From a virus (taxonomy: Duplodnaviria; Heunggongvirae; Uroviricota; Caudoviricetes), in IMG/VR virus record IMGVR_UViG_2880412407_000006: a stretch of DNA of 50,384 nt; one strand, 5' to 3'. Position numbers: made by a program. Shown here in pieces: positions 18,001 through 21,000 of the stretch; within the stretch, counting starts at the first letter, position 1, and each line of letters starts with the position of its first letter.

Positions 18001-21000
18001 GCCAGCCTGAACAACTGGCAACCTACAGCGCCATTGGAGACAGCAATGGCGCATATACAACTGGTCAAACAAACCTCTTCCGGATTACTTCTCCCGGCGA
18101 CGCCGGAGAGTTGTGATTTTCTGCATCAAATCAAAATAGGCGAGTGGATACACGCTGATTTCAAGCGCGTTCGTAACTACGCATTCCATAAGCGTTTTTT
18201 CAAACTTCTGCAACTCGGATTCGATTACTGGACTCCGGTCGGTGGGGCGATCACTCCTCGCGAGCGAAAACTGGTGTCCGGTTTCGTTGATTATCTGTGC
18301 GAATCAGTAGGCCGGGAACATACGCCAGCTCTGAGCGAAGCCGCAGAGCAATATCTGAATACAGTTGCGACACGCAGAACCCGAGATACAGCATTGCTAA
18401 AGTCGTTTGAGGCTTTCCGCGAGTGGGTAACCATTCAGGCAGGATTTTACACCGAGCATATTTATCCTGATGGTAGTCGTGGGCGCAGGGCAAAATCTAT
18501 CGCATTTGCGAACATGGACGAAACCGAGTTTCAGCAGGTTTATAAATCTGTACTGAATGTGCTGTGGAACTGGATCCTGTTCCGTAAATTTTCCTCTCCG
18601 GAGGAAGTCGAAAATGTGGCCGCGCAGCTGCTGGAGTTTGCGTAATGGTGGATTTACGTAAAGCGGCAAAAGGTCAGATGTGTACAGTCAGAATTCCTGG
18701 CTACTGCAATCACAATCCCGAAACGTCCGTGCTGGCGCATTACAGGCTGGCGGGGACGTGTGGAACAGCGACAAAACCACACGATATGCAGGCGGCAATT
18801 GCCTGTAGCTCATGCCACGATTTAATCGACGGGCGGGTAAAAACCAGCGATTACACCAAAGAAGAATTGCGCCTGATGCATGCAGAAGGTGTTTTTCGCA
18901 CACAAGAAATCTGGAGAAAGGAAGGTTATTTATGATTTACCCAACAAATACAGGCAAAAGCGGGGAACGCCTTCGTCTCACCACGCTGGAAAGTGTCTGG
19001 ATTCAGGGAAAACTGCGCATGTGGGGGCGCTGGTCGTATATTGGCGGCGGTAAGACGGGAAATATGTTCAACCAGTTGCTGACCTCTAAAAAGCTGACAA
19101 AAACGGCAATTAACGAGGCGCTCCGGAGGATGAAAAAAGCAGGTTTGGACAAACCTGAACTTGAGGCTTTTTTGCGGGATATGATCAACGGCAAGCAAAA
19201 AAGCTGGCTGGTGCATTGTACTGATGCAGAGGCGTTATGCATTGATCGGGTGATTAGTGAAGTGCTGGCAGAACACCCAGGATTGATTTGTATCCTCCGG
19301 CAACGATATGAAGGGAGGGGGATGACTAAGCGAAAAATGGCTGAATTGCTGAATGATTCACACCCTGAGTGGTGTTTTCGGACGTGCTGCAGTCGGGTAG
19401 ATGTATGGCTAAATCTTGCTGAATATATGCTCTATCTACCGATGCGTGATGCATTCTCTTCCGGGGATCTAAAAACCGTCTGTTGACTCAATCTGTTATC
19501 CGGGGCTATATTCCTCACGCGCCAGCAAAATCTGGCGTCGGGATTGGAACCCCGGATAGAGACCGCGACAGACACACGCCGCGAGCGTGTTTTTTATTGT
19601 CGTATGCACGCGCACATCTGAATTATGGTGGGGCGCATGGGGGAGCTGAAAAGCTCGCCGGTCGGTTTCCCGGTAGTTCCAACCCTGTGCGTCTCACCAC
19701 CCGATGATTGGAACCTGACGGTGGTGATAGTTTAGAAACCACCAGAGGGCGTCATTATGACAACTCAAATTTCTGTTGAAACTCTCTCCCCGATCACCCA
19801 TAACCGGATTCCTGTTATTACCACCGAACTTTTGGCGCAGCTTTACGGCACTGAGCCGGTGCGTATTCGCCAGAATCATCATGAGAACAAAGTACGCTTC
19901 GTTGAAGGGAAACACTTTTTCAAAGTTGTTGGTAATGACCTTAAAGAATTGCGGGTAGCTTTAAACTACTCACAAAATCCCATCTCTCCCAAAGCCCGCT
20001 CCCTTATCCTCTGGACAGAACGCGGAGCAGCCCGCCACGCAAAAATGCTCGAAACCGATCAGGCGTGGGATGTGTTCGAAAAACTGGAAGACTGCTATTT
20101 CAGTCAAAAGGATCCGTCAGCGCCAGTTGCATGCCAGAAAAGTTACGACACGCGAGTTCTCTGTTATCAGTGAGGTGGTGTCACTGTTTCCACAATTCAG
20201 TTACGGGATGATGATATTGTTATTTCCCTTGAGTCATGGCTGGAACTGGCGAGAGCCAATGGTTGGTTTGTTGTTCGCAGAGATAAACTGGTGGAAAGGT
20301 TGATGCAGCTTTAAAAAAGTTCTTGCATTTTTGCACATAAACTGCTTCAATTCCGGTACGCTTCGCAAAGCTGTATCGCGAGGCGAACCAAGCGCATGAA
20401 CTTTACCAGAACCCGCCATTGAGCGGGTTTTTTATTGCGGAATTAATTACGGACCGTTATTATTCTGCTCCCGGCCCTTTAGCTCAGTGGTGAGAGCGAG
20501 CGACGCATAATCGCCAGGTCGCTGGTTCGAATCCAGTACAACGCGCCACACTTATTTTCCCTGGCTCGCTTTTGCGGGCCTTTTTTTTAAATGTCTCACA
20601 ATTCAGGCGGTTGACTGTTGTCTGGTTTGCGGGGAGTTTGTTAAAAGAAACTGGCATGGTGAATCCCCCTGTGCGGAGGGGCAATCAGTGAGTAGGTATA
20701 TGGGATAATCGCGGATTCAGGTGCTGGTACTGAATTCACCGGGAGGCACCCGGCACCATGCAAGAAAAAGAATGTGCATGCAAACATGCCCCTCTCCGGA
20801 GGGGCATTTTTTATGGGTAAAAAATGCCCGAATGGGTTCGGGCAATAGCATGAGATACTGATATTGTTGTGTTGTTATCGTGTGGATTTTAACCAGGGTT
20901 TATCAGGCTGCGCAACTGCGTGGCCTTTTTTCATTTCTTGGGCTGTAGTCCCCGTGTGTCATTCAGGCTTCCGGACTACAGCCCACTCCATATCTGATTT

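Follow-up and report, generated by a model that had tools for sequence, protein, structure and literature searches.

A tRNA-like element inside a lambdoid prophage of Escherichia coli is very probably an ileZ::argO deletion-fusion pseudogene

The IMG/VR virus record IMGVR_UViG_2880412407_000006 (Duplodnaviria; Heunggongvirae; Uroviricota; Caudoviricetes), a stretch of 50,384 nt analysed over its full length and called the window below, contains at 20473–20548 a 76-nt element resembling tRNA-Ile2 with a broken acceptor stem. Is this a functional tRNA, a decaying one or the trace of a recombination event? An earlier reading of the sequence alone had recognized an ileX/ileZ-type tRNA with G at position 33 and regarded it as probably a decaying phage tRNA, while mentioning past recombination as a second option. 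We examined the element, whose sequence GGCCCTTTAGCTCAGTGGTGAGAGCGAGCGACGCATAATCGCCAGGTCGCTGGTTCGAATCCAGTACAACGCGCCA matches these window positions exactly, by comparison with intact phage tRNA arrays and with complete bacterial genomes. The results indicate that it is very probably a deletion-fusion pseudogene, ileZ::argO, a non-functional relic of two phage tRNA genes in which G33 appeared later.

We first consider how the two ends of the element are related to known sequences. Megablast of window 20300–20640 against 5,426 complete E. coli genomes gave matches which mostly ended at window 20536, beneath an annotated tRNA-Ile, and a second block of homology restarting at about 20517, beneath a tRNA-Arg. 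The corresponding interval measured about 380 bp in records with three tRNAs and 208 bp in the window. We aligned the window with three intact ileZ-argN-argO arrays (alignment A1; loci L003, L004 and L005) from E. coli 93_0495, E. coli Z1323CEC0001 and phage 933W (AF125520), and a wider alignment of 8 sequences was also used for the junction and its flanks. In these alignments the window tracks ileZ as far as GGTCG and then argO from GAATCCAGTACAACGCGCCA into the trailer and terminator. The ileZ-derived part comprises the 5′ acceptor strand, the D-arm, the anticodon arm, the variable loop and the first base of the T-stem (element positions 1–49), and over its first 56 nt the element is identical to phage ileZ at 55 positions. 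The argO-derived part (element positions 57–76) comprises the remainder of the T-loop, CCAGT, ACAACGC, the discriminator G and CCA. The G at 20521 is specific to ileZ, and the G at 20529 together with the base at 20537 is diagnostic of argO. Between the two parts the T-stem is a hybrid, GCTGG/CCAGT, compared with GCTGG/CCAGC in ileZ and ACTGG/CCAGT in argO. The unpaired ACAACGC is nothing but the 3′ acceptor strand that argO normally has, free of mutations; the GCGTTGT with which it would pair has been deleted. Coordinates of these parts and of the flanking signals are collected in Table 1.

Table 1. Features of the tRNA-like element and of its immediate flanks in the window.
Feature	Position	Strand	Remarks
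ileZ::argO fusion pseudogene (very probable), whole	20473..20548	+	76 nt including encoded CCA; exact sequence match
ileZ-derived part	20473..20521	+	identical to ileZ of L003/L004/L005 except position 33
G33, replacing near-invariant U33	20505..20505	+	T in the three aligned intact ileZ
Crossover interval CTGGTTC	20522..20528	+	common to ileZ and argO T-arms; flanked by diagnostic Gs
argO-derived part	20529..20548	+	identical to argO of L003/L004/L005
Putative tRNA promoter pT	20435..20463	+	TTGCGG, 17-nt spacer, TATTAT; homology to 933W only
argO trailer terminator, retained	20563..20588	+	terminator scan: GGCTCGC-TTTT-GCGGGCC, then eight T

Relative to the closest arrays, exactly 174 bp are missing from the window: the 3′ end of ileZ, the entire argN and the 5′ two-thirds of argO. 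As a direct repeat, the ileZ and argO T-arms agree at 18 of 20 bases, and in intact arrays the two repeat units start 174 bp apart. In the L004 array the repeat ending in the T-arm is the longest direct repeat, with this same spacing, and in 933W the T-arm repeat is the joint longest, with a spacing of 176 bp. Thus the element shows what is expected of a fusion pseudogene: 5′ and 3′ parts from different parents, loss of the DNA between them and a crossover inside a shared direct repeat. Hybrid genes and pseudogenes can arise by deletion between tandem, partly identical genes, through unequal or short-homology recombination. Similarly to such hybrids, the element has its crossover in a short, near-identical segment of tandem paralogues with the intervening DNA lost, and the junction is in register, so that a normal tRNA length is kept. 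Unlike working recombinants, its parents differ in amino acid and in acceptor stem, so that the product is most likely dead.

We also observed an intact ileZ allele with the argO-type T-loop TTCGAAT, at L010 601–676 and in 28 other genomes; the carriers, among the genomes listed, have pigs or wild boar as source. This loop may result from gene conversion between the ileZ and argO T-arms. As such an intact ileZ exists, the crossover interval of the fusion is possibly wider, and could extend over 20522–20536 if the parental ileZ already carried TTCGAAT.

Decay of ileZ in place, by point mutations in the 3′ acceptor strand and with no recombination, corresponds to the primary wording of the sequence-only reading, and the presence of one true substitution, G33, would suit it. 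It would however need at least five substitutions in 7 nt recreating the argO 3′ strand exactly, and in addition the argO discriminator, trailer and terminator as well as separate losses of argN and argO. A single clean gap of 174 bp in the alignment led us to reject this explanation, to which we give next to no chance. The alignment with Stx-phage (Shiga toxin phage) ileZ, which had been proposed as a check, returned ileZ up to the T-arm and argO afterwards. Both of the options offered beforehand proved right, with their order of importance reversed. The element does descend from an ileX/ileZ-type phage tRNA in decay, of which G33 is the only true point substitution; past recombination is borne out by the deletion joining ileZ to argO; and it is this deletion, not point mutations, that broke the acceptor stem, in one step, because it joined the 5′ part of ileZ to the 3′ part of argO.

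Can the product still work as a tRNA? Its arms read, in order, GGCCCTT-TA-GCTC-AGTGGTGA-GAGC-G-AGCGA-CGCATAA-TCGCC-AGGTC and, after AGGTC, GCTGG-TTCGAAT-CCAGT-ACAACGC-G-CCA. The boundaries and arms described earlier were exact, with D-arm, CAT anticodon and T-arm intact at 20473–20548. All 4 pairs of the D-stem and all 5 of the T-stem can form, the T-stem with a closing G·T pair and a TTCGAAT loop of the GTTCRANYC type. The anticodon stem forms 4 of 5; its A27·C43 mismatch is also present in intact ileZ and is therefore inherited, not a sign of decay. The anticodon CAT (window 20506–20508), in the loop CGCATAA, agrees with the CAU required of a tRNA-Ile2. The two anomalies that had been pointed out were equally real: GGCCCTT and ACAACGC form just two of seven acceptor pairs (G1-C72 and T7-A66), and position 33 is G where the intact ileZ genes have T.

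We examined how tRNA finders treat this sequence. ARAGORN, the scoring program suggested with the sequence-only reading, called no tRNA in the whole 50-kb window; as a positive control it found three of three tRNAs in each of the three intact arrays. The Rfam tRNA model RF00005 (gathering score 29 bits) matched the element with 37.3 bits (E = 2.4e-4 for the whole window and 2.9e-6 for the local region), a tRNA likeness far beyond chance. The match is nevertheless local, covering model positions 7–64 only with the acceptor stem outside, as against 72.5 bits end-to-end for intact ileZ. Folding of 77-nt and 131-nt transcripts gave a lowest-energy structure that is not a cloverleaf, and the stability was close to that of shuffled sequence (z = -1.1 and -0.9). 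No alternative boundaries restoring an acceptor helix or a cloverleaf were found by ARAGORN over the whole window or in the two folds. A canonical cloverleaf with other boundaries, the outcome envisaged earlier as speaking against a broken tRNA, was likewise returned by neither ARAGORN nor Infernal. The element thus lacks the 7-bp acceptor stem, the U33 and the end-to-end recognition by tRNA finders of a functional cloverleaf.

The Prokaryotic Genome Annotation Pipeline (PGAP), as used for RefSeq, gives another picture: every listed copy is labelled tRNA-Met, as a 71-nt feature corresponding to window 20478–20548, with no pseudogene mark. Together with the Rfam score above the gathering threshold, the intact D-, anticodon and T-arms and the encoded CCA, this annotation would favour a functional non-canonical tRNA, either tRNA-Met or tRNA-Ile2, having other boundaries or tolerating an unpaired acceptor end. 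The PGAP feature itself however starts five bases into the 5′ acceptor strand. tRNAscan-SE 2.0 accepts scores of at least 20 bits, detects truncated hits and chooses between Met and Ile2 by isotype-model scores, and its acceptance of low-scoring and truncated hits explains the shortened call. The Met label is plausibly due to the destruction of the acceptor stem that marks tRNA-Ile2 for TilS. The sequence descends from ileZ and not from a Met tRNA gene, and PGAP labels the intact phage ileZ tRNA-Ile. Adding the two acceptor pairs out of seven, the absence of an ARAGORN call, the local Rfam match, the non-cloverleaf fold and the loss of U33, we consider a functional tRNA highly improbable.

Several steps in tRNA maturation and use depend on what is missing here: RNase P, CCA-end handling and the aminoacyl-tRNA synthetases use the coaxial helix formed by the acceptor and T-arms. 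Pairs 4:69 and 5:68 (C4:G69 and C5:G68) are in turn major identity elements for EcTilS (PMC11947777). In the fusion both are C·A mismatches, in contrast to C:G in intact ileZ, and the discriminator is G73, contributed by argO, in place of the A73 of parental ileZ. Judged from its sequence, the fused unit is most likely inert as a tRNA because it has no acceptor helix, 4:69 and 5:68 are mispaired, G73 replaces A73 and U33 is lost.

To follow the allele in other genomes, we used a 43-nt junction query, built so that neither parent alone could seed a match. The exact junction was present in 161 of the 5,426 complete E. coli genomes, and in 159 of these all 76 nt, G33 included, were identical. Carriers include serotypes O157:H7, O121:H19, O111, O145:H28, O103:H2 and O45:H2, and some genomes carry the junction twice. 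The surroundings of the 76-nt core varied more. Three upstream modules were observed (DUF1133 with an ORF6N fragment, a DNA methyltransferase, or DUF1133 alone), two kinds of downstream gene (DUF6645 or SASA esterase) and two promoter/leader haplotypes near the core, with a diverged trailer in O145:H28; the same flank haplotypes were also found beside intact arrays. The simplest reading of this distribution would be one founding deletion with flanks later swapped among mosaic prophages. In the O145:H28 strain RM13516 (L007), the trailer immediately after the fused tRNA contains a duplication of 5 nt (GCGCCACACCACACTT compared with GCGCCACACTT), and the sequence further downstream, with its STnc100-like part, has clearly diverged, whereas the 76-nt core is unchanged.

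Among IMG/VR contigs, 22 carry the junction. Additional changes were seen in some of them: the conserved GG of the D-loop is AG in L014 and L023, and the -35 box is changed in L025 and L026. The junction was found in none of 50,697 deposited phage genomes, a collection made up mostly of Stx2 phages, so that we do not read its absence there as non-inducibility of the carriers. It was also absent from GTDB, searched with one genome per species.

The origin of G33 could be addressed in the same data. None of 7,483 places with intact ileZ (3,052 genomes) has G33, compared with 159 of the 161 junction-bearing genomes and all 22 IMG/VR copies. G33 thus most likely arose after the fusion, to judge by these sequences; its confinement to the fused allele fits decay after the death of the gene.

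A second ileZ::argO fusion, independent of the allele in the window, was detected in strain CD09 (L035, 464–539) and is present in 45 genomes, mostly of strains other than Shiga toxin-producing E. coli (STEC). Both parents and the architecture are shared by the two alleles, as is the 71-nt tRNA-Met label from PGAP. Unlike the fusion in the window, the CD09 allele keeps T33 and the ileZ loop TTCAAAT, has a more 3′ crossover, in AATCCAG, and joins ileZ to another argO allele (ACAGCGC) followed by another trailer. Its T33 supports G33 being a secondary change. Two fusions with different crossovers indicate that the T-arm repeat has caused such a deletion at least twice. In addition, we noticed degenerate argN-like sequences between ileZ and the next tRNA at L034 477–573 and L010 677–756. 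Both are uncalled by PGAP, the one in L010 is uncalled by ARAGORN too, and L010 has Thr and Gly tRNAs where argO would be. These argN-like remnants represent further decay in the phage tRNA array.

Taken together with the gene arrangement, these data lead us to propose the following course of events. An ancestral lambdoid prophage would have carried a cluster of three tRNA genes, ileZ (tRNA-Ile2, CAU), argN (tRNA-Arg, UCG) and argO (tRNA-Arg, UCU), downstream of the region for late-gene antitermination and ahead of the accessory and lysis genes. A deletion between the direct repeats of the ileZ and argO T-arms, presumably by replication slippage or short-homology recombination, would have left a single unit of 76 nt whose body comes from ileZ and whose 3′ acceptor strand comes from argO, the two acceptor strands not being complementary. 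As the putative promoter upstream and the argO terminator were retained, the fused unit may still be transcribed. G33 would then have arisen in a dead gene, followed in some copies by the changes in the D-loop GG and the -35 box, and the fused allele would have moved between mosaic prophages through recombination in conserved flanks. Loss of the tRNAs is probably tolerated in STEC because several other ileZ-like copies remain: a search with intact ileZ in a single STEC genome, PV15-279, yielded 9 ileZ-like places, and further STEC carriers of the fused allele have 4–9 matching places as against a median of 1–2 across all matching genomes. In the literature collection searched, nothing was found on ileZ, argN and argO.

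Some points weigh against this account of an inert relic. RecA or RecET/Red may also have provided the deletion route. The fused unit may give a stable RNA product. A consensus promoter scan does not call pT, whose assignment comes from homology to a 933W feature itself annotated ‘pT; putative tRNA promoter’, with which the region aligns. Finally, the 76-nt core is invariant in 159 genomes despite differing flanks, which taken alone could suggest purifying selection. We rejected selection on the core, as the flank haplotypes occur also beside intact arrays; the flank variants therefore come from recombination and not from mutation, and the core is a young allele with exchanged flanks.

The same observations bear on co-option of the fused RNA, that is, a transcript made from the retained promoter and terminator that would persist as a small tRNA-like RNA and have its own function. 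Conceivable roles are those of a decoy titrating a tRNA-binding enzyme, of a sponge, of an element for processing or insulation ahead of STnc100 and AgvB, or of a partner acting jointly with these two neighbouring small RNAs. Retention of the putative promoter and of the terminator, complete conservation of the core in 159 genomes despite diverged flanks, the existence of two independent fusions of one architecture, each in dozens of genomes, and the richness of the locus in regulatory small RNAs would all agree with such a role. If true, co-option would help to explain the spread of two like fusions to dozens of E. coli genomes. On the other hand, the T-arm direct repeat accounts for the recurrence, and a young allele with exchanged flanks for the conservation. 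The D-loop GG or -35 box is altered in some copies, as would be expected of a sequence free of constraint, the fold does not exceed shuffled sequences in stability, and the junction does not occur in the deposited phage genomes. We thus hold co-option to be unlikely and retain the fusion pseudogene as the preferred interpretation.

Counting both alleles, ileZ::argO fusions are present in about 206 of the 5,426 complete E. coli RefSeq genomes (161 + 45). Accordingly, tRNA gene counts and estimates of codon capacity for the carriers, many of them STEC, include a false gene, and they overlook that three rare-codon tRNAs have been lost from that prophage. Deletion between near-identical T-arms of non-adjacent tRNA genes also appears as a recurrent erosion route for phage tRNA arrays. 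The biology is that of routine prophage decay, a new example of a known event, and its value lies mainly in the correction of annotation.

We next consider the position of the element in the prophage. Strain 2014C-3599 has, integrated next to ttcA, a Rac-type lambdoid prophage with which the window is collinear at about 97–99% identity. The gene order of the window starts with intR, xisR, ralR, recET, kilR and replication genes, followed by DUF1367, DUF1364 and DUF1133 (the Q-like region). After this region come a truncated ORF6N antirepressor gene, the fused tRNA, STnc100 (+) and AgvB (-), and then DUF6645, holin, lysozyme, head and tail genes and nleC. As in the 933W-type ileZ-argN-argO cluster of Stx-converting and other lambdoid phages, the element lies downstream of the antiterminator/late-promoter region, behind a pT-homologous sequence, with the ileZ identity over the first 56 nt given above and with its last 20 nt, trailer and terminator from argO. 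The terminator is identical in L003 and L004 and aligns with the terminator annotated downstream of 933W argO. Unlike the 933W cluster, the window has one fused unit, no argN, no acceptor stem, G33 and no ARAGORN call.

This position also bears on whether the element could be an attachment-site scar, a piece of a host tRNA gene remaining after a phage has integrated or excised. Such an origin is conceivable, tRNA genes being common integration sites of phages. Attachment-site tRNA fragments are found at prophage ends and duplicate the 3′ part of a host tRNA gene. Similarly to such fragments, the element is a partial, prophage-associated tRNA sequence that annotation pipelines may pick up. A 2026 preprint (10.64898/2026.05.13.724894) proposes, in general terms, that tRNA-like matches near the small RNAs Pas and STnc100 are insertion-site remnants, a reading that would extend to this element. 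Unlike attachment-site fragments, however, the element is internal, about 20 kb from the int end of the prophage (the int/xis end occupies window 1–2.8 kb, beside ttcA in the collinear record), between the Q-like region and the lysis genes. It keeps the 5′ two-thirds of a tRNA with its own upstream region, and its two halves are identical to phage-borne ileZ and argO. The internal position and the homology to phage-borne genes led us to reject an attachment-site scar, which has hardly any probability left. At least here, the tRNA-like matches beside STnc100, AgvB and Pas are therefore to be corrected to the phage's own tRNA cluster, in line with the fusion of ileZ to argO.

Other features of the prophage were noted in passing. 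Directly downstream of the fused tRNA, window 20625–20880 holds the convergent small RNA genes STnc100 (+, 143.7 bits) and AgvB (-, 96.5 bits), the latter identical to the Rfam consensus. PGAP places a pseudo-coding sequence at 20644–20787 (-) inside STnc100, which is probably spurious. Upstream, window 19506–20107 gave Rfam matches to isrK, c4-a1b1 and C4 antisense RNA, followed by the truncated ORF6N antirepressor gene; it looks like a P1 c4/ant-type module placed between the Q-like DUF1133 gene and the late-promoter region. This module is missing from an otherwise similar locus in strain NJS001 (L009).

At the other end, the Rac-type intR carries, inserted in its 5′ end, a 1,311-bp IS3-family element (window 1199–2509), of which 100% identical copies occur on STEC plasmids. 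An ALIL frameshift pseudoknot lies within the element, at 2058–2174. The remaining int open reading frame (1–1179, -) encodes 392 aa compared with 411 aa when intact. Because intR is interrupted by this element, the prophage is probably unable to excise. Accessory elements were found at 2870–3048 (RalA antitoxin RNA, with ralR) and at 15103–15273 (sok, with hokD nearby in the collinear record). The type III effector gene nleC is located at about 47.3–48.3 kb, at the distal end, and is followed by an IS600-family element in the collinear record.

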